Below, one piece after another: positions 19,874-46,760 of a stretch of 64,000 bases of DNA. Under the pieces are notes generated by a model. That model made no database searches. It saw nothing but the letters and a program-made list of their open reading frames with translations, and was not told where the DNA came from. Numbering within the stretch: the first letter of the stretch is position 1; each line of letters opens with the position of its first letter. The stretch spans positions 806,001-870,000 of the forward strand of contig QPGO01000003.1 in NCBI GenBank assembly GCA_008632985.1, given 5' to 3'. The position numbers and the translations under genes were made by a program. Origin of the DNA: Psammoneis japonica. Taxonomy: Eukaryota.

Positions 19874-19901
19874 CAGAGAGAGAGAGAGAGAGAGAGAGAG
19901 A
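19874..19901. repeat. (AG)n microsatellite
   Basis: About 14 AG units. Confidence 0.95.
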
Positions 19902-22900: not shown

Positions 22901-23499
22901 CAACAAACTCATCCTCACACTTGGTGGCTGGGTGGCTGGCAAGCGTCATCTTCCCTGCCACAATGGGGCTGCACACAAACATGGCAGAACCTTCCCCAGT
23001 GCTGGTCATGATGCTCTTGATCAACCCAACGGTTGCTTCCAATGAAATGAAGACATCCTCATTCCTTTTCTCTTGAAGAGAACCTGCTCTCAGCCATTTG
23101 AAAAGCATCCAGTTGAACAGAATCCATTGTCCAGCAAATGTCATTTGTCTGAAACCCATCATGGAACAGCAAAAAATTTGCCTGTTGCACTCTCTGAGGG
23201 GGTGGTGTCCACTGCATTTCAGCAACTCTCAGGAAGACATTGTTTGTTCATCATTGATGATCTTGTGTGAAAGGTTTCTCTTGCAACCTCTGACCACTGA
23301 TGAGACTCCCACCCAGCCATCTGGTTTCAAGACGCTTTTTGCGAATTAAGCCATTTCAAAAAACACCACACTTGCTTTCACCATGAGAGCAAAAATGGTG
23401 GCTGGAGTGCATTTGTTGCACTGTGTTTGGACAAGATTTTGACATCTGATCTCATGCATTGACACATTGGAACATCTGGAGTTGCTGTGTTCTGGTCAT

Positions 23500-26400
23500 T
23501 GCACCCATGTTTTTGTGATTGATGCACCATGGTCAACCACCACCCAGTGGGATTTTGCAGGTCTCATGGTCAACCACCACCCAGTGGGATTTTGCAGGTC
23601 TCATTGGAAAATTGCTGGGTTTTTCTTTGTTCTGATGGCAAGAATCAATTCTCCTGCATCATTGTCATGTGTTTTGATGTTTGTTGACAACGGGGCTAGA
23701 AGCAAGGGGGGCAATGGCCAAAACTGGCCAAGCCAGAAGTGCCTTGGCCAAGCCAGCATGGCACACCTTTTGGTTGCCAGCATGACAGTTGTGGCAGGTT
23801 CAAGGTGCAACAAGGGCTTGGGATCATCTCACATGCTGATTGTGATGGTCAAACTTCAAAACAGGTGTCTTTCTGCCTTTCTGAGCCAAGAACTTCTCAA
23901 AAAGCACTCATCTGCTTCAGGAGTCAAAAAACTGAGTGGGGACAACAAAAAGTTTTCTGTGTTCTTTCCTTTTCTGAGAGCCGTCTGGTGGGCAGTGGAG
24001 CCCCTGGCAAGAAACAGTTCAAAACAACAAGCCATCAAAGTTGTTGGGGCCTTGAAGCTTGCTCTGCTTTCACTTGCCACACTGTCACTTCAACATGCCT
24101 CCCAGCTGTGATTGTCAAGAAATCACTCTCCAAGTGGCACTTGAATCACTTCTCAACAATGAAAAAAATTGTGATGATGTCAAGCTGCACAGGGGGCTGA
24201 TGGCAAACAAGTTCATGTGACACAGGCTCACCTCACTGTGCAGAGCATGGTGTCTCATTTCATGCAAGGCCACTCAGTCTGTCACAAATGACTGAAAAAA
24301 TGCAAGGATTTTGAGGCCCACAATCTCACTCTAAAACAACTGGAAGACGGTCTGTCCCTGCAACACAAGGGTTGTTGGAAAGTGGCCAAAGAGGCTGGAA
24401 ACCACCAGAAGGACCTTTCTCAAGAAACAGGCCAAAGAACCAGCCAAGGCAAATGAGTCCACTGCAGAAAGACAACTCCATGATCTCCTGCACAAGGAAG
24501 AACAAAGGGAACAGAATTGCAGAGTCAACCAAATCTCTTGCAAGCCAATGAGATCAGCCCCAACCCAACTGCTGAAAAAAAGAGGTCAGGACAACAGGGA
24601 AATCACCACTGAGGAAGAAATTGAAGATGTTTTGCTCACCAAGTGCAAAAACAGACTGCATCAGATGGAGGAGACTTGCCTCATGCAGGAATCACTGGTC
24701 CACAATGTCCAGTTTCTGGGCATTGGTCTGGCAGCCAACACAATGCTGCAAGGATCACACCAACTCACAGAAGGGACCAACGCACATGTTCAAGAATGCT
24801 TCAAACAGCTGAGTCACCCAAGAGGACATGAGCCACCCTCCCTCCCTGGATCACTGCCAAAGAACACATCCACTCATGGAAGTGAGACAGAGAAGATCTG
24901 CACCAGACCATCAGGGCCACATCCAGCCCACTTCCAAGCTTCATGCAACGGCCCTCTTCTTGCAAAGATGGGTGCATCTGTGACAAATTTCCCATGCATC
25001 ACCAGATGCACACCAAAAAGATGGAGGCAAGGAATGGACCTTCTTGTTCCCAAGAAGGAAGGTTGCAAATGCATTGACTTGCTCTGCCTGATGCTCTGTT
25101 TTGAGGTGCACACCAACAACAACAGCAAGTGCCTGGGAAGGAAGATGATGCAACACACAGAACCTCAAAATTGGACAGCCAGAGAGCAATGCATCAGCAG
25201 GAAAGGTCACTTGGTGGAAGAACAAGCCCTCAACAAGCAACAGACATTTAATCTGACAAGAGTGGACCAAATCACATTGGTCAACACAGCTGTTGATCTA
25301 CAATCATGCTGCAACTTGGTGGCATGCTCATGTGCATGGCCATGAGGAGCAAAAGGTGCTCAAGAAGTCCCAATTGCACGCAAATTCATGACACTGCAGT
25401 GCACAGAACACACAGTCAAGACAATCTGTGGCAGATCAGATGATTCATTTGGTGGAGTGCCTCTGCGTAACATGGTTTGACCCAACACACTTCAACCCTG
25501 AAGACAAACCCCTGCAAGGCCTTGGACAAGGCAATGGCAATGCCCCACAAACACAGTCAGCAGTCAGCATGCCTGCACTGGAGATGATGAGAGTGGCGGG
25601 CCATGGTGCTGCATTCAAATCATCCATCAGCAGAGGGTCCCTGAGATCAGTTGGCTTTGCGTTTGTTGATGACAGCAACTTGATGCACACAGCAGCAGAC
25701 TCACATCAACCAAGCTGGGAAGTGGCAGCTGATGCCCAACAAGGCCTGGACCAGTTCATCAGTGGAACGTGCATCACAGGAGGGGACATCCAACCCAACA
25801 AATGCTGGTGGCATCTCATCAAATTTGAATGGAAACAAGGAAATTGGCAACACATGGAGGAAACCATTGACCCATCTGACAAAAATGATCCTCACATGTT
25901 TGGATCTCCCATCTAAATCCAAGCCAAGCAACGGAGACTCTTGGTGTCTGGTTGGCCCCAGATGGCAACTGCAACAAAGTGGTCAAAGCCCTGTAGAAAC
26001 AAGTGGAGGCATGGGCTGACTGAGTCCGCATTGGTCACCTCACTGAAGCAGATGCATGGCTGTCTCTCACACAAAGAATGCAGAAAGCTCTTGACCACCC
26101 ACCACTGGCACTCATGGTCAACTCCAAGGAGTGCAGACACGTTGAAGCTCCTGTGCTTCAACAGGGCATCCTGAGAGCTGGATTGTGCTGCTCATTTCCT
26201 TGGGCAGTTGTTCAAGGACCCAATCACTTCCAAGGATGGGGGTCCAGTCAATTGAATTCACCATGCACAAGAAACACATTGAAGCATTGGCAAAACATGG
26301 CAAGCAACAAACTGTCACTGGCAATCTCATCTGCACACTTCTTGAAAAACACAAACTGGAAATTGGTGTGAGCGGTTAATTCTTGGACAAGCCATGCAAG

Positions 26401-28800
26401 ACCTTTGGTGTGCTGGTGACTCCTTTGGGGATTGAACACCTGTGGAAATTCTTGTCAGAGCACAACATCCATGTTGAAGAGGACACCCCCAACCTGCGCA
26501 TGAGCTGCATTGATGACTCCTTTCTCATGGAACAATTTGCAGACGAAGGCTTTTGGAGCACAAGACCAATTGCTCTCAACCATTGCCGCACATGCCTGTG
26601 TGCAACAACCACAGCCAACACAAGCTCTGGGGATGGCAAAGGAATTCTGGAAGCAGCATGGAACAGCAAAGATGATCCCTCCTTTTGATTGCCCCTTCAC
26701 TGGCCAATCCAAGGTGGGCCATCAGCTGCAGATTGGAACCTGTGGAGGATGGTGCTAAGAGCAACATTCACGAGACCCTCCAACGTGTGTGCTCAACAAC
26801 TGCAGAGGCCCCTGGGTAACTGGACAACCAAAAATGCAGATGACTTGCACTGGACATGGTTCTTTTCTCCATCCAAAGACTGAGTTTACCACAAAGCAGC
26901 AGCGGACAACTGGAAAGTCTGCAAGATGGCCAGCAGAAGATGGGCCAGGGCGCCTCACAGAAGATTTGTTCTGACCAAGGCAGCAACTCCTGTGGGAGAC
27001 CCACAACAGACAAGAATCCATTGGAGAGGCAGAGACACCTGGGAATTGTGTCACACTGGATTGGCTCCAACACAAACATGCCCCCCTGAACCACAATTCG
27101 AGACCATTGTCAACAGAATTTGACATCATCCGGCAAGCTCACAGTGGTCCAATGAATGCATTGCCAACAACAACAACACCTGGCATGTCAACCAAGCTGT
27201 CAGAGCTGCCACTGCTGTTGCTGCAAGTGTTGGGTGCCTCAGCCTTCACCACACAAGGGCCTCAAGAATCCAATCATGTCACAGGCACCAATGTCATCCC
27301 AGGCCACCAGGGAGATGTCAAGTCATGTTGTGTGGAAACAGCAGGTCTCTGTGGGATTGTCTGCATGGTTGAAGACATCTGTGCCCACCACAACATCCAG
27401 AAAGAATCCATCAAAGTGGCTTGCAATGGGGACCAGGCACTCAACAAGACGTTTGACCTCCATGGGCACATTGCACCATGCTCTGACAACTTTGCCCTGC
27501 CAAGTGAATGCCGCAAAAACCAAGTTGGAAAAAAGCAAACTTGAGCGGAAATTCAGGTGGGTCAAAGGTCATCAAGATGGAAAGCCAAGACATGGGCTGG
27601 AGTGATGGGCAAGACTCAACATCCAAATGGACAACCTTGCAAAAGCCAAATGGCAACAGGTCACCCGGTTGAATCCAGGCTTGATGCGGCTCAACATTGA
27701 GGACAAAATGTGGCTGGTCCACACAGGCAAGTGCAAAATGTCCACCAAACTTCTGGAACAATTGCTCAATCAAACCTGTGGCACCAAATTGGTTCACTGC
27801 TGGGCACATGAAAAACAATGCTTCTCATGACAGGGTTTTTCAAAAAGTGGGCTGGGATGCAATTGACAAAGCAGCAGACCAACTGGGAATCGGACACTGA
27901 TGCTGGCCAGCAAAACATGTGACTGGCATCTGCGGAGCAGGCAAGTGGCTGCAATGGTGGAAGCCACAAGACCACTCCCACTGCCCATGCTGTGAAGAAG
28001 ACAACAAAGATGTCTGACACACCCTGATCTGCCCAGAAGCCATGGCCAAGTGGAACAAACTGCTGTGGAAACACGTCAAATGGATGGATGACAACAATGC
28101 AGTGTTCGGGTTCTCTGAAGCAACACAAGAAATCATCTTCAAGCATGGAGAGCTCATGGCAACTTCCCTGTTGCATGCAACAACCTTGCCAGTCCAATCC
28201 TCCAACAGGCCATTCAATCTCAGCACATCATTGGTTGGAACAGGCTCCTGGAAGGCTGTCTACATCATTGGTTGGAACAGGCTCCTGGAAGGCTGTCTGG
28301 TGAGAGAGTGGTCCCAACTGCAAGATGAGCACTTCCGTCAATGCTCCTCCTGCAAAACAGGTGCCAAATGGGTGCAACGCTGGATCAAACAGCCAATCAA
28401 CATCCCTCAAGGCATGTGGAAACACCAAAACAATGCGGCACATCTGAAACTCACAGAACAAGCCATGCAAGAACTTGACACAGCTTTGCATGACACCATT
28501 TCCAATGAGGACAAGAGTCCCTTCTGTCAGAACATGGTTGCCACTTTTGTGGACACCTCATCACTCTGTTGTCCAACCACCACACACACAAGAGGTCATG
28601 GCTGGCCAATGTTGTTGCAGCCCAAGAACGCCAATCCAGAAAACTGGGTGTCAGCATCCAAATGAAAGCAGAGTGAGCCATGCCACACAAGTGGGTCACA
28701 GCAAGAATGCCAACAAAAGAAGCCACCAACACAAAACGTGATGAGGAATCACCCCCTCATCCCTCTTGTCATGTGCACACCCATCTCAGGACAAGACAAG
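23500..28800 (+). mobile_element. Degenerate non-LTR retrotransposon (Ambal-like: RT + RNase H + C-terminal Zn motif); ends approximate
   Basis: PKRWRQG.DLL.PKK, EQC.SRKG, QALNK, DLQSCC, QGLGQGNG, FAFVDDS, ETAGLCG, WVKGHQD, CPCC..H..CP, IGWNRLLEG; many stops and frameshifts. Confidence 0.8.
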
Positions 28801-30569
28801 CACCTCCAATGATTCTGCCTCCAACTTGGAGCAGTTGCGCTAGATTCAAGTTTCTCTTGTTTTGTTTCAGCTGTGCCAGGGACCTGCTCCATCAAACATG
28901 GACAACCAATGGCTGCATGTGACAATGCAGCATCCTGTGCCAGGGCCCAACCATGGTGGGACAACTGACAGTGATGCTCCTTGACATCAAGTTGAGTTTG
29001 CCTTGTTCAAACATGCCCCTCTTTAGATGACAGTCTGGAGCACTTCTCTCCAAAGTCTTGCAGCCAGCCGGCTAAAAGCCTGCAGAGGGCGCTGGCACTG
29101 ACCAGCAATCATTGAGTTGATTGATTGATTGAGAATCCTTTGGTCCTTTTTGGAGTGGGCACCTTTGTGGTTGGCAAGCCTGCTGTGCATCACAACTCTG
29201 CCAGACAAACTTGGCCATGTTGCTCAAGTGCATGCCAAGCAATTGACCCATGATGGCTTCCTTGTTGATGGACTTAACAGGCTTGCTGCTCTTCCCAGAC
29301 ACATTGGTTGCATGGCATGTGGTCATGCAGGCACTCTCATGCAACACATTCCAAGGTGCTGCTGCATGGCTGCAGCTTGATGCAACATGTGATGATGCAC
29401 TGCCACCCCTTGACCCAAAATCTGCTTGAGTTTGATTGCTGCAATGCACACCAAACCCAAGCAACAGAAGAAAACAGCGAGGTGTTGTTTGGGGTGACAA
29501 AACACATGAACTCATGACACAATGAGTTGCACAAAATGCCACACCTGTTTTTGTCTTTTGTTCTTGGCACCTGTGTCATTGCCAAAAATGTTGCAAATGA
29601 TGGAATGTTGACAGTTTTTATTCAAATTCCAAGCCAATGTTGGCAATGCTGTTGGTTGTTGGGTTTGGACATCATTTGGTTGTGATCTCACCAAGTCTCA
29701 GGGTTTCTTGTCATTTCTTGCCTTTTCTCATTGCTTCTTGCTCTTTGCTTCTCGTCACTTCTCATCATTTCTCATGCTTCTCATGATTTCTCATGTTTTC
29801 ATCATCTTGAGCAATCTCCCTGTCCAGTGGCAAAGCAGTGCTGTCAACAACTTTGGCCACTCAAGAGGTTTGCTGCTGGAAGCTCTGTGGTTGGTGGAGA
29901 AGAAATGGCTCAAGAAGCAACAGCAGGCATGGGGCACTGGGAGCCTTGTGCTGAAATGGTGACAAGATGCAGTGTTGATTTGTGTTGCTCTTTTGTGAGT
30001 GTCAGCACTGCTGCAGCTCCAGCCAAGAGAGAGATTTCTTCTCATTTTCTCACAATCTCTCATGATTTCTCACAACTTCTTGTCATTTCTTGTCCTTCTT
30101 GTGAGCTTGCATCACTTCTTGTCACTTCTCATCATTTCTTGCCATTTCTCATTGTGTGTCTGTTGAGAAATGTTGCTTGGATCTCTGCCATTTGACAACC
30201 TTTGGTTTTGCAAAATCACTTTGAAAAACAGGCAGCCTTGTTGGCAGTTGCTCCAGCTGTTGGTGCACAAACATGGGTGGCATTCATGTGTGCAATTGTG
30301 CTCTGCAAGAGCCTGAGTCACCAGCTTTGTTTGTGCCTTCATTGGCAACAACCACACCACCAGGAGTCAACACATGACACATGATGTCATTTGACAATGT
30401 TTGAGCAATGCACCACAACCACTGCACACAGATTGTTGAGGTTTTTCCATGTGGGATGTCCCAGGGTCTCTTTCCACCATGCATTTTTGTGGGTTTTGTG
30501 CAAAGTGCTGCTGGGTGGTGCTTTGGGTGCAAGGCCAAAGCTTTGTGTGGGAAACCATGCAGCCATTTC

Positions 30570-30813
30570 TGACAGGATTTGAACAAGATTTTAGTTTGTC
30601 ACACACAATTGTGTGTGCTCTTGGTTCCGCGCACGTCGCACGATGTAGTTTGCTTTCAAGCCACATGGCTCACAAGAACAATGACAGCAGTGCCATGTCA
30701 TGACACCAGTCTTTCGGCTCCTGCAGTGGTCTCTGAATGGAGACTTATCTGCCATTTAGACAGCAGCAAGGAGTTGTTGTTTACTTCCACCCAGTCATCT
30801 TCATTTTCTGTCA
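30570..30813 (+). repeat. 5' LTR
   Basis: 244 bp, about 90% identical to 37153-37397. Confidence 0.95.
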
Positions 30814-31626
30814 GATTGACAGTCTTGCTCTTTGTCATCCATTGAGCGTTCATCATCATCATCGAGAAATTTTTCGACAACGCGCACCGTTGGCGGTGGA
30901 AGCATGTGTCTGCCTTCTTCACTGCTGGACACTGGATTAAATCTGCACATTTGGATTTATCCAACACCTCTCATTGTTGGATGTGTTCATCAAACGGATG
31001 TTTCTTTGACCAGGAATTCCTGAATTCTCAAGCATCCGAGATTCCGGATTCCTCACAGCGGATCCTGCTAATCCATCTGCTCGCGTCCACGTGCACACGA
31101 TGTGAACCCTTGACTCTGGCCCTGCTTCGCACATGCCAAGTCTACCGCCTTACATCTGCACTGGATTGCTGGTCTTCTGCAGTCCTGCAAGGTCCACGAG
31201 GACAACTGTGAGAGGAAGCAGTTCGTGATTGCAGCCTGTGTTGGGGCGAGGGTGCATTTCCCACATTTGTTCGTCCCTCCACAGCGCCAAATTTGGCCGG
31301 CCTGATCGGGTTGTCCAACCAATGTAAAACAAGAACAGTTCGGAGGTCTTGTCCACCTCTGGCTGGCTTGTCAGCAGAGGTTTTTTACCCGTTGCTCCAC
31401 TCTCAGGCAACCCAAAGCGTCGCCAGCTGCGGGTTCGGACGTGCCGGCACAACCCTGCAGACCGGATGGGAAGCTTGGCACTTAACTACGAATGGGACAT
31501 CACAGCCCAGCGGCTTCTGACTCTTGAGATAGTTCAAGACATCAAGTCAAGATTCAAGTCAAGTTTCAAGCCATTTCAAGCCCACACTCCAATTTTAGCC
31601 AGTTCCAACATCCACCCAGTTGCAAC

Positions 31627-34600
31627 ATGGTCCTCACCAGGCAACATCAAATCAATGGCCTCAAGCACATTCTAGGCACTGTCCTGAATCAAGCCGCAGA
31701 CAGTCCATTGCGCTCCACCCTCAACATTGATGGAACCGATTCGCATCAGGACCTTTTCACTTTTACACCGATGCAATTGGATGCCCTTGTGCACAATGAC
31801 GGCACCAATCAAATGCCCTTGCCACGTGGTTACAAAGCACAGACAGCTGCGCTGATTAGCCTGTACACGGCAAAAGCGCACGGCGGCACGGATGTCAGCA
31901 ATGACCCTCAATTGTTCACGCAAGAGGAGTTCACCATCTGTTGTCTCAGTCCTGAGCATGCAGCGTCCCTCTCCATGGGTGCAGCACCAACTGCTCCCAC
32001 CCCTGGCTCGTTGCCACCCAAACCACGTGATCCCATGCGTGACTTTAAACGAGGCATCAAACGTGACCCACTCACCTTCGCGCTTCTCAAGTCTGACAAA
32101 CAGCGGCACACATGGCACACCCCCATCATCGCACAGGCCTGCTCCCAAGACATCGCACGCATTCTCGATCCGACGTGCACAAGCCCTCTGCAGCTGAGGA
32201 CAAGGCCCTGTTTGCTGAACAACAGAAGCACATGTTTGCCGCATTTGAACAGATCTTGCAGAATGACAAAGGCAAGGCTCTTGTTCGTCAACATGTCGGC
32301 TCCTCTGATGCTCAAGCGGTGCATCGTGATCTCTCCAAGTGTGCCCTTGCTTCCACTCGCGCATCCCTGGAGTCCTCGACCCTTCTCACGCACCTCACCA
32401 CTGCTCGCCTCAGTGATGGCACCTGGAAAGGATCCACTCATGCCTTCATGCTCCACTGGCAGGACCAGCTCCGCAAGTGTGAAGCTCTTGTCCCGGGTGC
32501 GGACCATTTCTCTGCTGGCCAGAAACGTGTCATGCTTGAGAATGCTGTTCATCCTGTTGAGGAACTCCGTTTGGTGAAGAATCAAGCCGATCAGTTCCGC
32601 ATGCAGAATGGAAAGGGGCTCTCTTATGAAGAGTGCTGTGGACTCCTGCTTTCTGCTGCAGCACAGCACAACAGCACGTTCACCCCCAAGACGGCTCCTT
32701 GCACTCCACGCCATGCCATCTACGAACATGACCTGGTCCCTGATGACCCTGATGATGATGCATTCTTCGACATCGACAGTGATGTTGACGTCATCCAAGC
32801 TTGTGCTGCATGAACTCGCGGCAATTCCCTCACCAAGGAACAATGGCGTTGCATCCCGCCGGACCATCAGCGCATTTGGGACACCTCACCCCAATCCACC
32901 AAGGCCATCATGCACAACCTCCGCATTGGCAGCGATGGTGATGTCAACTTGTCCGCCCACACTCACGATCTTGCGTCAGCCTCTGCACAATTCAACGCTG
33001 CAGCCGATGCAGCCGATGCCAACCCCATTCTGGCTCATCTCACCAGGCGCAAGCCTCTGCCACCCGGCAACTTGCAACGTCTCCTGGCCCCTGAACGGCC
33101 TCCTTCCGCCCGTTCTGGTGAGAAACCGCCCGGATCCACACCTTCCGTCCACTCCGATGCGAAGCCCATTGACACTGACATTGAGATCAACGGCCATGAA
33201 TGCCGTCGCGTCAAGAACCACAACGTTGTCTGCTCTGCCTCGACCCACAAGTCAACTCGCAAAGGTGCTCTCGTGGATCGTGGTGCAAACAGCGGTGTTG
33301 CCGGTGATGATGTTCGTGTCATTGCCCGCACTGGTCACCAGGTTGACGTCCAAGGCATCAACGATCATCAACTGGTTGACATTCCCATTGTCACTGCCGG
33401 TGTTGCCATCCACATGCAACGCGGCCCTGCCATTGCCATCCTTCACCAGTGCACCTGCACTGGAAAGGGGAAGATGATGCACTCTTGCGGCCAGCTCGAG
33501 TGGCACAAACACGATGTCAACGATTGGTCCATCAAGGTTCCCAATGGTCTGCAGCGCATCACCACTGTTGATGGATGCGTCATTCCCATCGACATTAAAG
33601 CCGGCCTCCTGTGCGTTGCCATGCGCCCGCACACCGACACCAAATGGGACACTCTGCCACATGTTGTCCTCACTGGTGATGACACATGGGACCCATCTGT
33701 CCTTGACCACCAGTTCGCCAATGATGAAAAGTGGTGTGATGCCATGTCTGACCTCCAAGACGACCCGACTGCCAACCTCTTCGATGAGTTCAGCAACTGT
33801 TGTCACCGCCATGTCATCAACAACGCCATGCTTGCAGACTCCGTCCTTGATGATCACCTGCTCCCGACATCTGATTTCTTCTACGAATGCCATGAGCGCA
33901 AACTCCATCCCAAGGATCCCGACTTTGAGTCCCTCCGCTGCCACCTTGGCTTTCTCCCAAAGGACACTGTCCACCGCACTTTTGATTGCACGACCCAGTG
34001 TGCCCGCATGCCAACCAGCATGCACCTGAAAAAGGCGTGCAAATCGCCCAACCCGGCTCTCAATGTCCACCAATGTGATGAACCCCTTGCCACCGACACG
34101 GTCTGCTCCAGCACCCCTGCCATTGACTCTGGTTGCACCAGCACCCAGCTCTTTGTCGGCACGGAATCTCTTGTCACTGACATGTGTGGCACCAAAACTG
34201 ACAAAGAATTTGTCACCACCCTTGAGGACAACATTTGTAATCGCGGTGCCCCGTCCAAGCTCATCAGCGACCATGCTCAGGTTGAGATCAGCAACAAGGT
34301 TCTTGGCATCCTTCATGCCCTCTTCATCTCTAGTTGGTAAAGCGAGCCTCACCACCAGCATCAGAATTTTGCTGAACGCCACTGCCAAACTGTGAAGACC
34401 ATGGCCAACACTGTCATGGATTGCTTCAGCTCACACCTGGCTGCTTGCCCTGATGCATGTGTGTTTTGTGCTCAACCACACGGCGTCCGCCAAGCTCCAC
34501 TGGCGCACCCCCCACCGAGGTGCTGTCCAGCTCTGCTCCTGACATCAGCCCGCTCCTCCGCTTTCAATGGTGGGAACCCGTGTGCTGCCACCTGGATGAT

Positions 34601-37165
34601 TCCGACTGGCCGTCCAAATCCCGTGAATTACGTGGTCGCTTCATTGGCATCGCCGAACACGTTGGTCACCAAATGACGTTTAAGATTCTTTCTGATGACA
34701 CTCAGAAGATTCTCTGCCGTTCCAACGTGCGCTCCGCCCGTGATCCGTCTGCTCCAAGCCTGCATCTTGATCCTCCTGACAAGAAATCTGCTGACCCTGT
34801 CATTAAATCCCGCCACCACTCCGAGAATTTGCCAGATTCACCAGATGGGGAGGCGATCAGGATGCCCAAAATGCCGGTCTTTGACCCCAAGGATGTCACA
34901 GGACGCACCTTCCTCATGAAGCCACAAGAGGATGGACAGCACCACAGAGCCCGCATCGTCAAAGCCGTTGAGGACCACGACTGGAAAATTGGAGGCAATC
35001 CTGAACTGGTCAAGTTCATTTGCTCCGTCAACAATGACGAATGCGAGGAAGTCCCAGCCTGCAATGACATCATGCACCACATTGAGCAAGAAGACGAGGA
35101 CTCAACTCTCTGGAAGTTCTGACGCATCACATTGCACAAAGGACCATTGCGACCCCATGATCCCTCTTGGAAAGGCTCAAGCTACAACGTCATGCTTGAA
35201 TGGGAGAATGGGGAGATCACGTCTGAACCCCTTGCCATCATTGCCAAGGATGACCCCGTCACCTGTGCCATCTACACGCGTGAGCACGGCCTTCTAGAAA
35301 CTGAAGGATGGAGACGTCTTTGCAAGATAGCACTTTGTCAGAAGAAGCTGTTCCGCATGGCCAACCAAGCCAAGTTGCACTCCTTTTGCACTGCGCCACG
35401 ATGCAAGTGCGGGTGTGAAGTGCCACGGGACTTCAAGCATGCCATGGCCCTTGATGAGCGCAATGGCAACTGCAAGTGGGGAGACGCAACAGACCTTGAG
35501 ATGAGCCAGCTTGATGAGTGCAAGGTCTTCCACGACTGTGGACACCACAAGGATTCCAGTGCTCCATCGGGACACAAGAAGATCCGGGTGCATCTCATCT
35601 GCAACGTCAAACATGATGGATGGCCCAAAGCAAGGCTTGTTGCCGATGGACACCTCACAGACGTGCCCATCGACAGTGTCTGTTCCGGAGTGGTGTCTCT
35701 CCGTGGCCTGCGAATGATGATCTTCCTGGCCGAACTCAACGAACTAGAGACCTGGGCCACTGACATTGGGAATGCCCACCTTGAAGCCACGACCAAGGAG
35801 AAACTGTACATCACAGCAGGCCCCAAGTTTGGTGACCTGGAAGGACACATCCTTGTCATCCACAAGGCCTTGTGCAGACTCTGCAGCTCCGGCCTCAGAT
35901 GGCATGAATGTTTTGCCGATTGCTTGCGTGCCAAAGGCTTCTTTCCATGCAAAGCCGAACCCGACATCTGGCTGCACAGGAATGGTGACCACTGCGAATG
36001 CGTGGCAGTGTATGTGGATGACCTGGCCTTCGCCATGAAGGACCCCCAGGCTTTTGCAGACACCCTCATGGAGAAGTGCAAGTTCAAGCTCAAGGGCACT
36101 GGACCATTGGAGCTTCATCTTGGCTGCGACTTCACCCGTGACCCAGATGGCACCCTGTGCCTTGCTCCCTGCAAGTGCATTGAGTGCATGGTTGACAACT
36201 GCACACACCTCTTTGGGGAGAAGCCCCGCACTGATGTGCTTTCACCCCTTGACAAGGGTGACCACCCTGAGCTCGACACCTCCGAATTGCTCAAACTGGA
36301 TGGCATCCACCAATTCCAATCCTTGATTGGATCCCTGCAATGGACTGCATCTCTGGGTCGCATTGACATCACTGCGGCTGTCATGTCCCTGTCCAGCTTC
36401 CATGCAGTGCCCCGTCAAGGCCACCTGGACCGTGCCAAATGCATCTGCGGATTCCTCTCCAAGATGCGTCATGGCACCCTCCGAGTGCGCACCGAGGAGC
36501 CCGACTGTTTGGACCTTCCCAAGCCCGTGTGCGGTTGGGCTCAATCCATGCATGGGGAGGCAGAAGAGCTGCTCCCGCAAGATGCGCCCGAGCCACTTGG
36601 CAAGTTCGTCACCACCACGCACTGCATTGATGCGAACTTGTTCCATTGCATGCTCACTGGATGCTCTGTCACCGGCATCCTCCATTTCCTCAATGAGTTT
36701 CCGGCTGATTGGTTCTCTTAGAAACAAGCAACAGCAGAGACTGCTGCATGTGGATCCGAGTTCGTTGCCGCGCAAGGACGTGTGTCAAGCAGATCATCAA
36801 TCTGCGCGTCACTTTGCGTCACCTTGGCACCCCCATTCTCGTGAAACATGTTGCATGTTTGGGGGGACAACAAGTTGGTTGTGGACAGTGCTGCCATCCT
36901 GCACTCCAAGTTACACAAGTGACACACCACCCTCTCGTTCCATCGTGTGCGTGAGGTGATTGCCTCCGGTTTCCTTGAGCTTCATTTTGTCGAAGGCTCC
37001 CGCAACCCGGCTGACATCCTCAGCAAGCATTGGGGTTGCTCCCAAATCTGGAACCTCCTTTGTCCTCTAATGTTTTGGAACTTCGATCCCAAGGCTTTCA
37101 ACCAATCCAACTTCGAATCTGTCACTGTTGACCCCTCAAGCAAACTGGGGAGTGACAGGATTTGA
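31627..37165 (+). pseudogene. Copia gag-pol, disrupted and Tyr-depleted
   Basis: LVDRGANSG (PR), GAPSKLISDHAQVE and QNFAER (IN), ARLVADGH, DIGNAHL and YVDDL (RT), NPADILSKHW (RNase H). Confidence 0.9.
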
Positions 37166-37397
37166 ACAAGATTTTAGTTTGTCACACACAATTGTGTGTG
37201 CTCTTGGTTCCGCGTGCGTTGTGTGATGTAGTTTGCTTTTGAGCCACATGGCTCACAAGAACAATGACAGCAGCGCCAATGTCATGACACCAGTCTTTCA
37301 GCTCCTGCAACGGTCTCTGCACGGAGACTCATCTGCTGTTTAGACAGCAGCAAGGAGTCATTGTTTTCTTCCACCCAGCACTTTTCATTTTCTGTCA
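37153..37397 (+). repeat. 3' LTR
   Basis: 245 bp, immediately after the PPT. Confidence 0.95.
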
Positions 37398-38475
37398 ATT
37401 TTCAAAGGAGTGGCAAGAAAGTTCAAGCCACCTCTTTTTGTTTTTTCCATCAACAAATGACATGGCACAGAGGATTTTGCTCTGCAGCCAGAGGGAGGCA
37501 AAGGACACCCAGGTGTGGCGGTTCTTTCCACCAACACAAAAAATGGCCGTTTGGCGATTTGCTCTGACCACACACATGCTCTGTGCCAGGTGTGAACATG
37601 CAAAGAAAAGGCATTGATGGCATCATGCCCCATGTGCAGGGTTGGTCCCACAGACACTTCCAAAACAAGGCAGCAGCAGCAGAGTGGGCATTTTGGCCTG
37701 TGGCACAATGGCAGCACTGTCCTCACAACAGAGCAACATGACCAAGACAGCGCAAGTGCAAAATTCCACCCCTTCTGCAGGAAGAGTCACTGCGCGAGCT
37801 TTCCAGACCCTGCACAAGAGTTCTTGAATGAGCCAGTGCAGAGCCCCCTCCTCCCACCACATGAGGAAAACTTTAGAATCACTTGCCCAGCCCTCCCTTT
37901 GAGGTGCCTTGTCAAGAGCTGGCGGGGTGCCATGGGGTGCGCGAGATTGCTTGTGCCACACACATCTTAAATGCACGCCCATCCTAAAGCATGTGATCAT
38001 GTCTTCACATGCCACGCACAACCACATCCCACTGCGACGCCACAAGGGATTGACGCATGGTGCGACCTGCAGATGGACGATGTTACGGAGTCACCGGAAT
38101 GGTCGAGCAGACCTAAATTCAAAAAATGATTGACCTGCCGACCGACCTGCGTGCCTCTGGCCTGCGCCTGCATGCCGCCCCGTTGACCGTTGACCGTTGA
38201 CCGTTGACGCGACCGTTACCATACAGTAGTTGCAAGCACCGCGCCATCGCCAACATTTCTCTTTGCTATTCGCCACTCTAGGCTATCTACCGGTAATTAA
38301 CTTTTGCCATCATCTTCTGACCACAGAGTACAGAGTTTGTTACAGTGCACAGTGCAAAGGACCCTACCAGCGCATTGTTTATTGCTTCTACACTGTGCAT
38401 CATTATTCATATTATTTTTGTGTGTGGGGATGTTCCCTATTTCAGCGTGACTGTCTCTCCCGTCGAGCAGAAAGA

Positions 38476-39389
38476 ATGAAGCTTTCAGTTTCCTCCTGCC
38501 CACCCCTCTGGATTGCTGTGATTTTTGGATTATTGATTGTCAATCCAGTTATTTGCATTGCATTTACTAAACAAAAAAATTCAAATGTGGAGCACAAAAC
38601 ACCAAGCTTTGTTCATCTGCCAGTCTTGTACGGGCATGTCCACATGGCGAAAACGGCAGGCTCAAGCATTGTTGGAAATTTGTCCATGCATTTCGAGCGA
38701 GTTTGCGGCAACAAGGGATATTCATACGACGCGTACCAAACAAACGAGAGAATGCGAGCGAATCAATTGAAAACAAACAGCACAAACCTGCCATACGAAG
38801 CAGACGACATGGTGAACAGGTTTTTGGAGGCCAGCATAACAGAGGAAAGCTTCCTAGTTCCGCAATGAAGGAAATTGGTTTTGAAGACTGCGACTATGTC
38901 AGCATGGAGGGCCGCTGGACAATTTGGCCGGAGTTGTTTGCAGAGTGGCCTTTTCCAGTCGAACTGCATGTAAGCTGTCGAGATCCACTGGACCACTACC
39001 TCTCCTTTTTGAATTTTAAGGGATACGATTTCCAGTGTAATACAAGGGATAAAAATGGGATACTGCGTCAAGTGGCAGAGCATGATCCACAGACATCCAG
39101 GTTCTCCATGAAATTGTTGGAGGTGAAGAATTTCACTGTCAAATGTTTTGACTTCCGGAGCACGTCAAAGTACATGGGGTACATGGGAGCACGACTTCAA
39201 CGCAAACGAATCGAGACGGATTATGTGTTTCGCTCTACCAACAGACCCCGAGACAAGACCAAGGAATGCTTGTGGGACTATCCCGATTTGCAAGACATGA
39301 TTTCCGATTATCTTGCCCAGCGCAATGACTATTACAAATTTTGCAGTCAGTGTCTCGGATCGGAAGACGACTTGTTCTTTGAACGATAG
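38476..39389 (+). CDS. Type II membrane sulfotransferase-like protein, copy 1 (apparent frameshift in the T-run near 38821)
   Basis: N-terminal TM segment, HMAKTAGSS (5'-PSB-like), CRDPLDHYLS (3'-PB-like); paralog at 58490. Confidence 0.6.
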
Positions 39390-39845
39390 ATAGTGCAGAA
39401 CATTGGTTCTTTGCAATGTATTTTATTTCAGCTCGTGGCATTCCTAGCCTACGGTAGCTAGCGGCTCCGCTCAATTAGCCGCGAAACCAAAATTCTGTTC
39501 ATTCACAACACTTCTCTATTAAATCTCAAATCTCCAATCCCATTGAAGAAGTACAGCTCAACCTGTCCAAAGAGCCAGTAGGTCTCTACAGACAAATGTG
39601 ACGTATTCCAGTGTCCCAACTCGGGTGAAAATGGCTTCAATTGCCTTGATATCGAGCTTCAACTTTTGCTTTTCCGGATGCAGCTCCATCAGAATCTGTC
39701 CCACCTAGTCCTCGTGTCCCCTCCTGATTGTTGCAGAAGACTTTTATTGGAAACCAGCCCGAGTCTGGATCTTCGTGGTCACGAAATCCGTAGTGTCCGT
39801 GAAAGCTACCCACTATTTGCGTCTGTTGATACTGAGTTTGAGGTA

Positions 39846-41234: not shown

Positions 41235-42019
41235 TGAAACAAGATCGCAGCCAACCACTTTTGATCTGTAAAGAAAACTATCTTGCACAGGATCGAAGCA
41301 TTTACACATTCTCGTCCTTGCGAAAAAAGAACACGAACAGGATTTGCTATGTATGTGAAAAAGTGAGGAGGTGAGAGTTCTTGCGAGCGTTGAGCGTTGG
41401 AGTGGATATTAATTAATAATGAACATACCGTATATGTTCCATACAATGTTAAATATCAACAAACGAATCACTTTCAACTTTTATTTTAAAATTGTTGGAC
41501 ATTTATTTTTAAAATTAAAATCGAAAAAACTACAGGTACTGCATGTATGTGCATACACGATTTCCCACGCAGCGCCGTTGTGCGCGAGTGCCAGAGTGCT
41601 AACCGAAATCCGATCTCTGTGCCGATGATCAAGAATAAACCCTTTCAGTTTTCAGACAAAGGCCAAACCACAGCATGCCGTACATAAAATATGTAGAATT
41701 CTACGTCAACACTTTACCGTGTTGTAAATCAAAATCACGTGGTGAAAGCACGGTGAAAAGTTTGAGGGGTGGAGAACGTCCACATGAGCATGCAAGTGGT
41801 TCAACATTGTGCAACTGTTGCCCAACACATGCAAAGGTTGTGTTAACTTGAAGCTTTTGCCAGCAGAGATGTTGGATCAAAAATTTTGGACAACCCTTGT
41901 TTCGACACAGTGAAGTCGGTGAATCGCTCGCCAACTGGCAGGCAAATCGCCAGCAATTAACTGGAAATGCTTTGTGAGGCTCCAAATGACTGACAAAGTA
42001 GATTCTTTGGCAAAAGATC

Positions 42020-43250
42020 ATTGTGCATTGTCAAGCATGTCTGTTCAATCAGCTTGCACAGTCAAGATGTGCCCCAGCGTCAAACAGGGCAGAGACAACA
42101 GATTGTCTCTTTCCTTTTCGTGCTTTCACTGTGGTTTCCATTTTTGAACATGGTGAAATGCGCACACAATTTTGTGCCAAGCACTGCAGCATGCTGTGGT
42201 TTTGCTGGCTGAAAGAGTTTGTCGAGTGCACACACCGCGTTGCAAAAGAAGGTGCCAAATGGCTGGATTCTGTCATCGTTGCCAATTGTTGGGCCAACGT
42301 TGATTGTTTTGCTTGTTGTGTTGCAATGAGTTGCTGATCTGGCTGAACAGAGCAGTGGCAAGAAGCTTCCTCCATGTTTTCCCGGCCCACCCACTTGGGA
42401 ATCTCCTGGTTGCTGGTGTGCATCTGACCAGCCACAGCTTGGGAGCTGATCCCCACCGGGTGCCTTGCAAGTCACATTGACCACCTTTGCACAAGCAAAA
42501 AGAAACACAGATTGGCACACAAGAGATGGTTGCACGGGCAAGTTGGGAACAGGCTCCCATGCAAAAGTGCAGCAGCCAGTTCCCCAAATCAGTTTTTGAA
42601 ATCACTGCCAGAGCCTCCTGTTGCCAGCTGCTGTTGACTGCTGGAATGTCCACTTTTGCTGCCACAGGATGACTCACTGCACCTCAAGGAAGATCTGTTG
42701 GCATTGGCACCATGAGTGAGGCCACATGCAGCAGAGAATTTCTTCCCCCTTCAGCGATGTTTTGCAAACTCTCAGATTGGAAAGCCGTGGCTGCAGTCCT
42801 GGGACACCTGCTTTTGTGTGGGTTGAGGTTGATGTGGCAAAGAACTTTGGCCTGTTCCAGCCCCAGGTGATGAGAAATCCATCAAACAAGAGGCCAATTT
42901 TCTGTGCAGTTTGGCACATTTGATCTTCAAGTTTGATCGTTTCGAAAATCGAAAGGTGAGTGTGCACAAAAAAACATGAGTTTTGTGTGCACTCACCCTT
43001 CGATGTGGGAAAAACCTGATTTTGAAGGAGTTCAATGCACTGAATGCAAAATTGTGATGGGAGTCAAACCTGTGCACATCACCTGGAGCTGCAACAGGCC
43101 CGCTGGCACAATTGGTTGCAAAGATGTCACCTTCGTTCCTCTGCACAATCTGGCATGATGGCTCAGACAATGTCCAACACAAAGAGAGATGCCCCACAAC
43201 AAAAGACAACAGCAGCTTGATGTCAACAAAACCCCTCCATCATTTTTCAG
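42020..43250 (-). pseudogene. Eroded copy of the 53060-54600 gene-like sequence, with a ~630-bp deletion and a MITE insertion
   Basis: 42230-42423 aligns with 53210-53407; 42425-43230 aligns with 54035-54590. Confidence 0.7.
42849..43100. mobile_element. Eroded MITE with 24-bp TIRs and an internal hairpin
   Basis: ggcctgttccagccccaggtgatg / catcacctggagctgcaacaggcc; empty site in the paralog at about 54445; hairpin 42950-43003. Confidence 0.8.
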
Positions 43251-44149
43251 AATTTGCTCTCTTTTCTCTTTTGCACTGCTGCTCTGTCAACCAAACTCCT
43301 GAACATGTTTTTTGTGTTCAATGGAGGTGAAAATCAAAAATCACATGAGAAAATTGTTTTTTGCACCACATGCATGAATCTCCTGTTCAACTGGTCCATC
43401 TCTTCAATGACTGTGTCCTCCACAAGCTGGCATGTGCTTTTTTGTTGTCTCTTGTTGCTCTGTGTGTGAAGCAGACATTGTTGCCTCGTCTCAGATGATT
43501 GATGGGTCTGTGCGGGAAATGGTGTTTTTAAGGCATGTGCATGAGTCACGTGCAGCGTCACAATGTCGGACAGACAACGGTCATGCAGTTGTTGCGATTT
43601 GCATGACAAACTGCTGTTCAAAACACCGATGATGACAGTGGCACTTTTCGGATGCTCTTTGAGATTAAAACTTGGCAATGGGCGCTGGCACATTGATCAA
43701 CTGTGCTGTTGTGAACACAAGTGTGCAAAGAAAGCACCCGGACAAAGTCTCAATCATTCAACAATGAATGCACAAAATTGACTGGTGCAAAAACAGAGCT
43801 CAGCATTGGTGTGATGTTTTGCTTTCACATGGAGGTTGCTTGTGGGGACTTTCATGACTGAGCACATTCTCAAACATGACCAAATTAAATGTCCACAATG
43901 CTCAAACATTGAAGATGCACATTGCTGTCATTGCAACAATGCACCTCCATCATGTCAAAGATTTTCAGCAATGAGGCATGCAGTGCACTGCGCACTTCTG
44001 GCACAGTGGAAAATCCTGAAAAATCAAATCGTCCTGCCTGCACCCTTTCTTCTGCAATTGCCTCAAGCAAAAAACAAAGAGTCTGTGTGGTTGACCATTT
44101 GCAATGCCAACTGCGCAGCTGCGCACAATTTTTCTGCTTGATGAGCTTG

Positions 44150-44472
44150 TGCATTTTTGACACAACTTTGACACAACTTTTGGCACAAACCAAACTTGTG
44201 CCACATTTCTGAAAATGCACATCCGGGTGTTTTTTGATTTTCACAAGACTTCCAGTGCAAACTCCACACAAAAAAATAAAACCCGATGTGCATCATTTTG
44301 AAAGTTGTGTCACACATTTTGAAAAATGTGTGCACGGGTTCTTTCGTGTGCAGAAGTCTGGTGCATTCCCACACAACGCAAAAGTTGGGATGTTTTCAAT
44401 TGTGCACATCCAGGTCTTTGCACACCTTTTTTGTCTCACAATTTTTTGTGTCAAATGTTGTGTCTAAAAATG
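44150..44472. mobile_element. Possible eroded foldback element or MITE
   Basis: Imperfect inverted repeats catttttgacacaactttgacacaa / ttgtgtcaaatgttgtgtctaaaaatg. Confidence 0.5.
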
Positions 44473-45299
44473 TCTTTTCTTCAAGGTGGTGTTGGCAATG
44501 AATTTGTCTTGTCTGACAGATTTTGTGCTGGCAGGCACAATTCACATCAATTGTTTTGACACACAGACCCAATCACTTGGGATGCAGACACTGGCCTGCT
44601 CATTCATTCCCCCAAACGTCGGTGCAAGAGGGACCAATTTTAGCAATGACTTTGCCCCCATTTAGCCTCTGTCAAAAAGGGTGCCTTTCACAGCTGTGGG
44701 CTGTTCCGCAGGATCAACTGCATCCTGACACTGCTGTTTGACACTGGCACATGTGACCCTGCGTCCACATCTGATGTGTCCCCACTGCTTGAAACTGGGC
44801 ACTGTTGACTTGCATTTGATTTGGATGTGCTTCAGTGCAAAATTGTTCTTCTAAGAAAATCATCCTTGAACAATGACCACATGCTTTGTGTGTGCAAAAT
44901 GGCAAAATCAAATGCAAAATGCAGCCATTTGCAGTCACTTGGGAGGAAATGGTTCAAGAGAGATGATGTTGAAGTGAAAATCAAAATTGACACACATGGC
45001 ACAAGTGCAATGAAAAACAAGCCTTTTGTGGGGGCACTGACCACCATGCTCATGTGGAACAATCAAAATGTTCAGAAACGAGGACAGAAGCAAACAGCGC
45101 TCAATGTCAATGGGAATCACTTAAAAATGTCGAGTTGGTCACAATTGATTTTTTGCATGACGAAAAATGCAAAATCATGTGGAAATGCACACAATGTCAT
45201 GCAAGAAAGTGATTTGAGCCAATGACTTGGGGGAAGTCAATTGAAATTCATCTGATCACAAGAGCATTTTGATTCACATGTGGGAAAGAGCAACACCCT

Positions 45300-46760
45300 T
45301 GATCAGACAACATTCAATTGATTTCCCGAGAAGTTGACATTCAAGCACAGACAGATGGGCAGACTGACAACAGTTGTTTTTGGTGCTCTTCTACACAATT
45401 TCCATGCAATGACTCTGAGAGCCAAGTGATTCCCTGTTGTGAGCCAATGCCAACCCCACTCGGGCAAAAAATGGAACCACTCAGTGGCTTGCAACTTTCA
45501 CAGCGTGAAACTCACCACTGACCAAATGAAACAGTGTCTCCAAGTGAACGACATGTTGACAGAGGCAAAACAGCATCATTCTCAATGCAGCATGTTGTCA
45601 ACCGCCACTTGTGTGTGGAGCACGGATGCCATCAAATCACCGTCATGGTCATTGGTGGTGATTTTCTCACCCCACAGAAACCACCATAGAGCAGCACCAG
45701 AGAAAAATGTTGGACCATTGAATGGTTTGCTGCACAAGTTGAGCACCAAGAGCTCCTTGGAATTGGCAGAAATGTGCGCACAATTTGGGCCAGAGGGTTA
45801 AATGCCAAATCAAACCAGAAAAATGAGGCTCAAGATGGTGGAAGCATGGAGACTTTTGAGAGTGCAGCAAACCACCAAAATGAAGCATGCATGTTGTCAA
45901 ACAGACTTTGCTGCATTTGACCGATGCAATGTCACCACAGATGTCTTGTCATCTTCAACATTTTTGTGCATTGTCTGTCAAGTTGTTTTTGGCATGCCAT
46001 GAACCACTTGATGGTTCGGGGCAACAATTGCTTGCATTTGTGATTTTGTGCAGTGAACCACTGCATGGTTTGTGGCAGGAGTGGGGCCAACATTGCATGG
46101 GCAGCAGACAGCACAAAGTGCACAGCAGAGTCATTGCACAAGGTGCCACCCCCATCACAACTCTTGCAGCACAAGTTGACACCAAAACTGCTGGCATGCA
46201 TTGTGACACATGAACTCTGGTCAAAACCTGGATGGTGCACACAATGAACTCTTGTTGTGACCAATCTTAGCACCATCACACACTTGGACACTCACTCACA
46301 AAAAAGGTTGACATCGCTTGACTGGGATGGTTGGCAATGCTTGTCAACAAAGCCCTGGCCAATGCTTCAGAGTAGAGCCTGTTCCATTTTGTGTTTGCCA
46401 GCCAATCTGTGGTGCATGGAACACTGAAGGCAAGTCCTGGGTCCATTGTGTTCAATCAAATGTGGTCCTTGATTTGCCATTTGTGACTGATCTGCATGTC
46501 CTTCAAGAAAGGAGGCAAAAGTTGTTTGATCAAAAGTTGATTGAGGCCCCAGCAACCAAAAGCAGCAATTTTTGCTCTCCCCTGTGATTGCCAAGTGGGA
46601 GACCAAGTGCTCAAGTTGACATGCAAACCTGAGAAGCTTTGGTCTTGAGCTCAGGGTCCCTTTCCTGTTCAAACCATCCATCACAATAGAACCTTGACTG
46701 TCCAACTCTCCCACATGCTGTTGAAAGAACATCTGCTCAGCCCATGTGTCAAACCATGCA
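45300..46760 (+). mobile_element. Degenerate Ty3/Gypsy pol remnant (integrase C-terminus; weak RNase H-like piece upstream)
   Basis: TLKASPGSIVF..DLPFVTDL..RRQKL, DCQVGDQVLKLTCKPEKL, QGPFPVQTIHHN.TLTVQL. Confidence 0.65.

Follow-up and report, generated by a model that had tools for sequence, protein, structure and literature searches.

In this work we analyzed a stretch of 64,000 nucleotides (nt) of nuclear DNA from the diatom Psammoneis japonica (contig QPGO01000003.1, positions 806,001-870,000; hereafter the window, in whose own coordinates all positions are given) and, in particular, a Copia retrotransposon located at positions 30570-37397, whose reverse transcriptase (RT) has lost most of its tyrosines. 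The analysis revealed that this copy and the other repeats of the window have been depleted of the dinucleotide TpA by a process that is specific for TpA, acts on both strands after integration, is restricted to repeats, depends on the 3' neighbor of the attacked A, and comes near saturation before the decay of CpG is completed; in the host, neither genes (duplicated or not) nor intergenic DNA are affected. We consider it probable that what we observe is a hypermutation of TpA to TpG or CpA that targets transposons and operates at the DNA level. According to this idea, transitions from A:T to G:C, occurring in transposon DNA already integrated, would be the primary event, and the replacement of Tyr by Cys or His would represent their trace at the protein level. 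To the more specific idea that the process is a defense carried out by an adenine deaminase we attach about half of this confidence.

The RT open reading frame (ORF), located at 35123-36721 on the forward strand, encodes 532 amino acids (aa), rather than the 529 given in an earlier note on this DNA; that note had counted 4 Tyr and about 33 Cys, and the actual numbers are 4 Tyr, 33 Cys, and 29 His. The ORF matches the Copia-type RT domain RVT_2 of Pfam (E 2.2e-19, 70.4 bits vs. a cut-off of 31.6). As a comparison set we used 80 relatives from metagenome contigs (L001-L080), 62 of which are intact and served for the codon alignment. In the homologous stretch the 80 relatives harbor 20-31 Tyr, 3-12 Cys, and 10-25 His, and their TA observed/expected ratio (o/e) ranges from 0.46 to 1.19, whereas that of the Copia copy in the window (hereafter the window copy) is 0.10. 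Tyr is invariant in all 62 intact relatives within the motifs NAYL, KALYGL, and VYSGVV, where the window copy reads His, Cys, and Cys, respectively, and the three Cys of CKCGC fall on columns shared by Tyr and Phe (35 Y/27 F, 56 Y/5 F, and 24 Y/37 F). The comparison thus bears out the four motifs on which the note had relied (CKCGCEVPR, DIGNAHL, KALCRL, and CSGVVSLR). The window copy is identical to its relatives at 281 of the 340 columns conserved among 60 of them. The 20 conserved Tyr columns read Cys (10), His (2), Phe (4), Trp (1), or Tyr (3), so that both TAY>TGY and TAY>CAY changes (Y being a pyrimidine) occur, as claimed; the Phe and Trp states are also present in relatives at 4 of the 5 columns concerned.

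Not all the Cys and His residues derive from Tyr. Indeed, the 23 conserved Arg columns read Arg at 14, Cys at 5, His at 3, and Trp at 1, and all nine losses correspond to a change of CGN into TGY, CAY, or TGG; CGN is also the codon of 12 of the 14 Arg that are kept. Since 9 of the 21 conserved CGN-Arg codons have been changed in this way, about 8 of the 20 Cys/His gains at conserved Tyr/Arg columns come from Arg and not from Tyr. The loss of Tyr dominates, and CpG decay gives about 40% of the Cys/His gains traceable to these columns.

To pass from residues to dinucleotides, a site was considered as conserved when the same dinucleotide was present in at least 60% of the 62 intact relatives of the codon alignment. 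Just 4 of the 23 conserved TA sites are kept, the others reading TG (12), CA (3), or TT (4); CG is kept at 11 of its 17 conserved sites, and the remaining ones read TG (3), CA (2), or AG (1). The difference in retention between TA and CG is significant (Fisher p 0.003) and corresponds to a rate ratio of about 4, which supports the proposal of the note that TA erosion is faster than the deamination of 5-methylcytosine (5mC). The other 14 dinucleotides are retained at 68-100% of their conserved sites, including AA (41/47, with 2 changed to AG), CA (25/29), GA (57/66), TT (15/18), TC (20/24), and CC (25/25). The sum of TA, CG, TG, and CA is 392 in the window copy and 389 +/- 12 in the relatives; within this sum, TA amounts to 7 vs. 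86 +/- 21, TG to 167 vs. 114 +/- 20, and CA to 156 vs. 113 +/- 16. Fifteen of the 19 lost conserved TA sites read TG or CA, and the remaining four read TT, that is, Tyr>Phe. The possibility that the latter were A>T by-products of base excision was dropped, Phe being found in the relatives at 3 of the 4 columns. This is a dinucleotide process, not an amino acid process.

The intact relatives exhibit a composition gradient of their own: their TA o/e correlates with their CG o/e (r 0.50), and TG/CA correlates negatively with TA o/e (r -0.77) and with CG o/e (r -0.87), the 62 relatives being phylogenetically non-independent in all these comparisons. The low-TA relatives keep about 26 TAs in Tyr codons, and their TAs number about 16 at either of the two remaining codon positions, vs. 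about 41.

The same depletion was then sought along the window, and a 1-kb profile together with the list of TA positions revealed six TA-poor blocks with a TA o/e of 0.035-0.12. They are the Copia element itself (TA o/e 0.12, CG o/e 0.62, with 299 CG); an older TA- and CG-depleted block at 19737-30569, which contains a long interspersed nuclear element (LINE) and continues past Copia at 37398-37873 (TA 0.035, CG 0.15, with 94 CG); two unclassified repeat blocks at 42000-49684 (TA 0.048, CG 0.275) and 51945-56014 (TA 0.039, CG 0.13); a block at 56373-57810 in which much CG is left (TA 0.043, CG 0.56); and a block at 62715-64000 that runs off the window (TA 0.042, CG 0.45). The four host stretches have a TA o/e of 0.51-0.58 and a CG o/e of 0.86-0.96. 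The edges are sharp: at 19736 a density of one TA per about 25 nt is followed by a TA-free run of 1,409 nt. As regards CG, its o/e jumps from about 0 to 0.65 precisely at the 5' long terminal repeat (LTR) of Copia and is 0.23 beyond the 3' LTR, which indicates that Copia entered, as the younger of the two, an element that was older and decayed. The block at 42000-49684 shares segments of about 80% identity with 53201-54629.

The comparison of the six blocks provides the strongest support for different speeds, and for an uncoupled extent, of the two losses: the TA floor is flat over a five-fold range of CG o/e (0.13-0.62), so that TA and CG loss are not proportional, and the observation that CG is less depleted in Copia than in the neighboring LINE block holds. 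Of the idea put forward in the note, that TA erosion is separable from 5mC deamination, the part concerning the extents is therefore supported; at the level of mechanism the two may be linked, for instance through a shared chromatin mark acting as targeting signal. One such link would be collateral damage of repair, in which the T:G mismatches left by 5mC deamination recruit an error-prone polymerase of the Pol eta type (WA>WG, W being A or T) that mutates the TA sites nearby. The finding that TA and CG are lost in exactly the same blocks agrees with this scheme, and if most mismatches were repaired back to CG, TA loss could outrun CG loss. However, the motif of Pol eta is WA, and its signature should affect AA as well; the fact that AA is spared in the RT ORF disfavors it, and so does a TA loss whose extent ignores a five-fold difference in CG loss. 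We regard this explanation as quite unlikely.

It might also be argued that there is no targeting at all, and that TpA>TpG/CpA is an ordinary neutral bias of the whole genome, the repeats being merely old and unconstrained. The host DNA, too, is low in TA, and the low-TA intact relatives keep their Tyr codons and lose TA at the other codon positions, both of which are in agreement with this view. Nevertheless, the intergenic host stretches that adjoin the blocks have a high TA density, and the block edges are abrupt. Moreover, an element resembling a miniature inverted-repeat transposable element (MITE), of about 390 nt, lies at 56000-56388 between two TA-free blocks, and this insert is unmutated, with a TA o/e of 0.98 (31 TA) and a CG o/e of 1.59; it is either young or too short for targeting. 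It is delimited by 30-nt inverted ends (87% complementary) and has an inner 19-nt inverted pair. Together with the polymorphism of the Copia insertion described below, an element that has lost more than 80% of its TA and yet is absent from an allele with an identical 730-nt host flank, these data make an untargeted bias extremely unlikely.

Being duplicated does not appear sufficient to trigger the process. Two host paralogues of 1 kb, 20 kb apart (38465-39509 and 58479-59544, 82% identity), have a TA o/e of 0.47 and 0.52, share no CA/TG doublet (that is, no site reading CA in one sequence and TG in the other), and differ by 78 transitions vs. 83 transversions, even though selection on these genes could mask an effect. 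A second pair of host duplicates, at 16123-16567 and 60414-60852, shows 71% identity.

The same signature of TA loss is borne by a second transposon family, the LINE. The ORF of 336 aa at 24335-25342, which has no Tyr and 21 Cys, matches 591 proteins in a phmmer search (best E 1.2e-30); the relatives of 1,600-1,990 aa contain RVT_1 in 4 of the 6 tested and Exo_endo_phos in 1 of the 6, and tblastn detects a degenerate ORF2 remnant at 24239-28662 on the forward strand, collinear with residues ~450-1870 of these relatives. Although Pfam recognized nothing in the LINE ORFs of the window themselves, these homologues identify the neighboring block as one that contains a LINE (ORF2), as had been assumed, and it is into this block that Copia was inserted. 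Among 470 conserved LINE codons, the 10 conserved Tyr have become His (5) or Cys (4), and one is kept; 14 of the 35 conserved Arg are kept and 15 have changed to C, Q, H, W, or a stop.

The TAs that survive are not a random sample. In the 32.6 kb of the blocks there are 114, vs. 1,153 in 30.1 kb of host DNA (about 1,248 would be expected in the blocks from the host density); 25 TTAA survive of about 50 expected, and none of about 94 ATAT. We described these data by a model with four parameters, in which the A of each strand is attacked independently at a rate set by its 3' neighbor and host DNA provides the baseline. The modelled survival per strand is 0.70 for TAA, 0.40 for TAG, 0.19 for TAC, and 0.066 for TAT, and on the ten symmetric sequence classes the model gives a chi2 of 5.07 (6 degrees of freedom), whereas uniform survival gives 170 (9 degrees of freedom). 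The order of attack TAT > TAC > TAG > TAA fits the observed survival. It follows from this rule that Tyr codons (TAY) are hit hardest and become mostly Cys, with no need for a strand bias. The TG:CA outcome is 12:3 at the strictest conserved TA sites of the RT and 14:8 at a looser threshold.

The timing of the changes can be read from the LTRs, which are identical at integration. The 5' LTR (30570-30813, 244 nt, with TG...CA ends) and the 3' LTR (37153-37397, 245 nt) form a direct repeat of 90% identity on the forward strand, with 24 substitutions and one indel between them. Seventeen of the 24 substitutions fall at YpR (pyrimidine-purine) sites, and they include 5 CA/TG doublets, 6 cases of CG vs. 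TG/CA, and 1 of TA vs. CA. The 5 doublets imply that both DNA strands changed after integration. Starting from 3 sites that are CG in both LTRs and 6 half-decayed CG sites, CpG decay alone is expected to give about 1.5 doublets (Poisson p 0.019), so several of the five would come from TA sites changed independently in each LTR and on opposite strands. Furthermore, a runs test on the order of TG and CA along the six blocks gives z from -1.4 to 2.3, and the TG:CA ratio is 0.87-1.10 in all of them; there are, therefore, no long one-strand tracts. Two other comparisons were set aside: that of a second repeat pair, rejected as evidence for TA loss as CpG decay alone predicts about its number of doublets, and a strand bias estimated from base composition, which is not robust, as it depends on the ancestral composition.

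The changes that postdate integration and the lack of tracts argue against an editing event before integration, be it an ADAR-like activity on the retrotransposon RNA or, as for APOBEC, a deaminase acting on the cDNA. Such an origin would suit the fact that both elements whose type has been identified are retrotransposons, and the sense-strand excess of TG over CA (12 to 3) at the conserved RT sites points in the same direction. This bias, however, is what the 3'-neighbor rule predicts for TAY and shrinks when more sites are considered; over whole blocks the two outcomes are about equal, and in the LINE Tyr>His (5) and Tyr>Cys (4) are balanced. In addition, the old LINE still harbors polymorphic TA sites, and neither the sparing of AA nor the lower sensitivity of TAG compared with TAY is what the preferences of ADAR (5' U or A and 3' G) would produce. 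Editing before integration thus appears very unlikely.

Further information came from the contigs of a public run, X1, which may belong to another strain, aligned to positions 19001-39000. One contig, with a single-copy depth of 49.7, joins 30560 to 37409 with 15 other letters in between and lacks Copia; it represents an empty site with a single copy of the target region. It continues for 1.2 kb to 38603 with 3 differences, all within the LINE remnant, while the 730-nt host flank shows none; the Copia LTRs, for comparison, differ at 24 of 244 positions. The existence of this empty-site allele indicates that the Copia insertion is polymorphic, and the process looks fast accordingly, more than 80% of the conserved TA sites of Copia being gone in spite of this polymorphism. 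The Copia family is highly repeated, its summed word depth in X1 being 6,000-58,000, vs. 32-100 for the LINE and host flanks.

The differences between the window and X1 comprise 309 transition and 56 transversion places (A>G 78, G>A 83, T>C 80, and C>T 68). Among 40 of the 372 difference rows, positions 26377 and 29275 read TA in the window and CA in X1, positions 29383 and 29977 read CA or TG in the window and TA in X1, and two further places are TG/CA doublets. This suggests a recent activity in both lineages, if weakly, given that the strain is possibly different and that paralogues might be involved. The differences are concentrated at a distance of up to about 1.5 kb from the insertion site, and 5.9 kb of LINE further to the left are identical. 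On the whole, the term erosion used in the note understates a process that is restricted to repeats, sharp-edged, and posterior to integration.

The run X1 also bears on the possibility of a sequencing or assembly artefact, such as base-calling errors at modified bases in repeats. One could be suspicious of the fact that this run contains only 43% of the words sampled from the Copia stretch; nonetheless, a share this low is in agreement with a polymorphic insertion whose family comprises hundreds of diverged copies. Four X1 contigs are identical to the window over 5,922 nt of the TA-free LINE block, which indicates that the TA depletion does not come from the assembly, and neither the conserved YpR total nor the clean context rule is what errors would yield. 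An artefact is, in our opinion, hardly conceivable.

Concerning the structure of the Copia element, LTRs with TG...CA ends and a 5-bp target-site duplication (left 30565-30569, right 37398-37402, with 4 of the 5 bases equal, as read from the sequence) are those of the Ty1/Copia type. Upstream of the RT, an ORF of 508 aa at 32814-34340 (1 Tyr, 21 Cys, and 30 His) would correspond to the protease/integrase region; it has no Pfam match and aligns to residues 425-949 of the intact L001 polyprotein with 47% identity and many Tyr>Cys/His changes. It is followed by a pol ORF of 222 aa with no Tyr at 34454-35122, which is in the frame of the RT ORF and has an in-frame TGA at its end, and, downstream of the RT, by C-terminal pol remnants at 36709-37165 in two other frames (36709-36954 and 36923-37165); their translations match the tail of the consensus of the relatives, in comparison with which they carry Tyr>His and Tyr>Cys. 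All these ORFs lie on the forward strand. With its in-frame TGA, TAA, and TAG stops and its frameshifts, the window copy is dead, and what had been described as a systematic recoding is, although the skew from Tyr to Cys/His is real, the mutational decay of a dead copy and not an adaptive change. TpA changes create no stops and eliminate TAA and TAG, which is why the dead element retains long ORFs. The TAs kept in the 5' LTR, leader, and first part of Copia include sensitive TAC and TAT contexts.

The two intact polyproteins of this Copia lineage that we inspected, L001:1359-6914 (1,852 aa) and L017:822-7361 (2,180 aa), gave RVT_2 as their sole Pfam match, with none for the integrase, protease, and gag models, and no Pfam integrase was named in the window either; the lineage is poorly covered by current profiles. 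In the other TA-poor blocks, Pfam detected no transposon domain among 88 ORFs with a length of 110 aa or more, one further match falling below threshold, and a homologue search with the 303-aa ORF of the block at 51945-56014 gave nothing. A single Pfam match to a methyltransferase was found, on a host-side ORF at the 62.7-kb edge. In the region 31000-39000, 51 ORFs of at least 80 aa overlap over 8 kb, and long ORFs occupy all six frames there and in all the TA-free blocks; TAA and TAG being gone and only TGA being common, in such blocks the length of an ORF says nothing about coding.

As for the host DNA, a gene for the V-ATPase subunit H is located at 11918-13147 on the reverse strand, its closest named relatives being those of Attheya, Helicotheca, Striatella, and Seminavis (65-73% identity), in line with a diatom host. 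Two adjacent ORFs at 18453-19513, also on the reverse strand, share the motif block …GNR.FR.LV…EY…K.EK..IA..IL..V..RGGRFL… and look like tandem members of a lineage-specific nuclear protein family; they directly adjoin the left edge of the TA-free block.

As for the chemistry, the mechanism that we favor would consist in the enzymatic deamination of adenine in DNA to hypoxanthine, which pairs with C, performed perhaps by a TadA/ADAT2-like deaminase, an enzyme with a natural tRNA target that likewise reads U-A. The tRNA deaminases TadA and ADAT2/3 are universal and act on A34, always after U33; the native site of bacterial TadA is U-A-C, which fits the T-A-Y preference observed here. To our knowledge, however, a DNA adenine deaminase exists so far only as laboratory-evolved TadA. 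The process might serve as a genome defense, with mobile DNA singled out by a signal residing in chromatin, methylation, or small RNAs, and the fact that TA and CpG are lost in the same places suggests that one chromatin or methylation mark is common to both. Two features of the window put limits on this targeting, namely the untouched MITE-like insert inside a block and the higher TA content of the first 1.5 kb of Copia. The CpG>TpG/CpA decay represents a second and slower component within the same blocks.

An alternative chemistry would start from thymine: the T of TpA would be modified, for example to 5-hydroxymethyluracil by an enzyme of the TET/JBP type, mispair with G, and yield T>C. As TpA is self-complementary, A followed by a pyrimidine equals T preceded by a purine on the other strand, and the outcome is identical; in dinoflagellates, 5-hydroxymethyluracil replaces T preferentially at TpA, which may be counted in favor of this route. 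Yet no data favor it over adenine deamination, and a very high mutagenic efficiency would be needed to remove more than 90% of the sites, so that we consider it unlikely.

Several points weigh against the hypermutation that we propose. Neither an enzyme nor a base modification nor a targeting signal is visible from the sequence, and chemistry directed at A or at T leads to identical outcomes. The depletion of Copia is uneven, the first 1.5 kb (30570-32100) having 22 TA, a density three times that of the rest, with 23 TA in the remaining 5.3 kb (32101-37397; p 1e-4). The context model uses host DNA in place of the ancestral NTAN spectrum. The excess of doublets between the LTRs concerns small numbers (5 vs. 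1.5 expected), and the second repeat pair has 20 CA/TG doublets vs. about 18 predicted by CpG decay alone. Seven of the 24 LTR differences lie outside YpR sites, which is more than the divergence of the allelic flank suggests; they may in part reflect gene conversion, the copies being numerous, or a component of lower specificity. Finally, X1 consists of contigs only, and its comparison with the window covered 40 of the 372 difference rows.

It is worth comparing these findings with the known systems. In repeat-induced point mutation (RIP) of ascomycete fungi, CpA is changed to TpA in any duplicated sequence, giving an excess of TA and AT-rich DNA. The two processes have in common transitions at the DNA level on both strands, the restriction to repeats or mobile elements, the inactivating effect, and a dinucleotide signature with sharp borders; however, the direction here is the opposite (TpA to CpA/TpG, with TA loss and GC gain), and host duplicates 20 kb apart are unaffected, although selection could mask an effect on them. 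The editing of retroelements by ADAR or APOBEC precedes integration; its substrate is RNA or cDNA, and the changes affect a single strand and are clustered. It resembles our case in being a deaminase-type hypermutation that disables retroelements, ADAR also preferring a U 5' of the edited A, and differs from it in that the LTR divergence of our element postdates integration, both strands are involved, tracts are missing, and AA is spared. The CpG decay of methylated transposons takes place in the same blocks, where CG has become TG or CA (5 of the 17 conserved CG sites are changed in Copia, and CG o/e falls to 0.13 in older blocks), but it is slower and cannot yield Tyr>Cys/His, explaining only the share due to Arg>Cys/His/Trp.

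The closest parallel is offered by the chlorarachniophyte Bigelowiella natans. According to the preprint of Mettrop et al. (April 2026, bioRxiv 10.64898/2026.01.13.699255), in mutation-accumulation lines of this alga two integrated viral regions mutate about 1000-fold faster; A>G and T>C account for 210/211 and 20/20 of the de novo mutations, and all these changes fall on TpA. The same preprint reports 124 TpA-poor clusters in the genome and an enrichment of RT and DDE domains in TpA-poor coding sequences, notes that the elevated rate is active in some lines only, and proposes an ADAT2-like DNA deaminase. What is described there and what we observe agree in the nearly exclusive A>G/T>C changes, confined to TpA and giving TpG or CpA depending on the strand, in their clustering in foreign or mobile DNA, and in TpA-poor, CpA+TpG-rich clusters enriched in RT domains; the process in P. 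japonica might thus be of the same kind. There are also differences. The host here is a diatom (a stramenopile) and there a rhizarian, and the word diatom does not occur in the available text of the preprint; the targets are Copia, LINE, and unclassified repeats instead of giant-virus and virophage insertions; TA o/e (0.035-0.12) is near saturation, whereas the viral region of B. natans has a Rho of 0.45; and the TA loss is superimposed on CpG decay. The 3'-neighbor rule has no counterpart in the main text of the preprint, figures and supplements excluded, in which neither trinucleotide nor context appears as a word. Lastly, the rate was measured directly in the B. natans lines and here is inferred only.

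In the literature searched we found no report of a TpA-directed hypermutation in diatoms, the results being papers on fungal RIP, which produces the opposite change. The novel aspects are the retrotransposon nature of the targets, the supergroup of the host, the near-saturation, the 3'-neighbor rule, and the contrast with CpG decay. A bolder idea is that diatoms possess an enzymatic defense based on the deamination of adenine in transposon DNA, a sort of reverse RIP with T-A-Y preference carried out by a natural deaminase, which would be homologous to that of chlorarachniophytes and part of an ancient system of stramenopiles, alveolates, and rhizarians; we put it forward as a tentative and rather doubtful proposal. 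If the hypermutation is real, a second and distantly related algal lineage destroys its mobile DNA via TpA mutation, and what was a single-species curiosity would become a candidate for a widespread genome defense mirroring fungal RIP.

The consequences for the study of diatom genomes are also practical. TpA hypermutation would explain why repeats of diatoms can escape domain searches, as the LINE and the putative integrase region of Copia escaped Pfam in this work, and the loss of TAA and TAG would explain the many long spurious ORFs in such repeats. The order TAT > TAC > TAG > TAA provides a biochemical fingerprint for candidate deaminases, and a natural DNA adenine deaminase, if it exists, would be of interest to base editing. 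Finally, an insertion that is still polymorphic and yet heavily mutated suggests a speed that might be caught in the act in mutation-accumulation lines of a culturable diatom.

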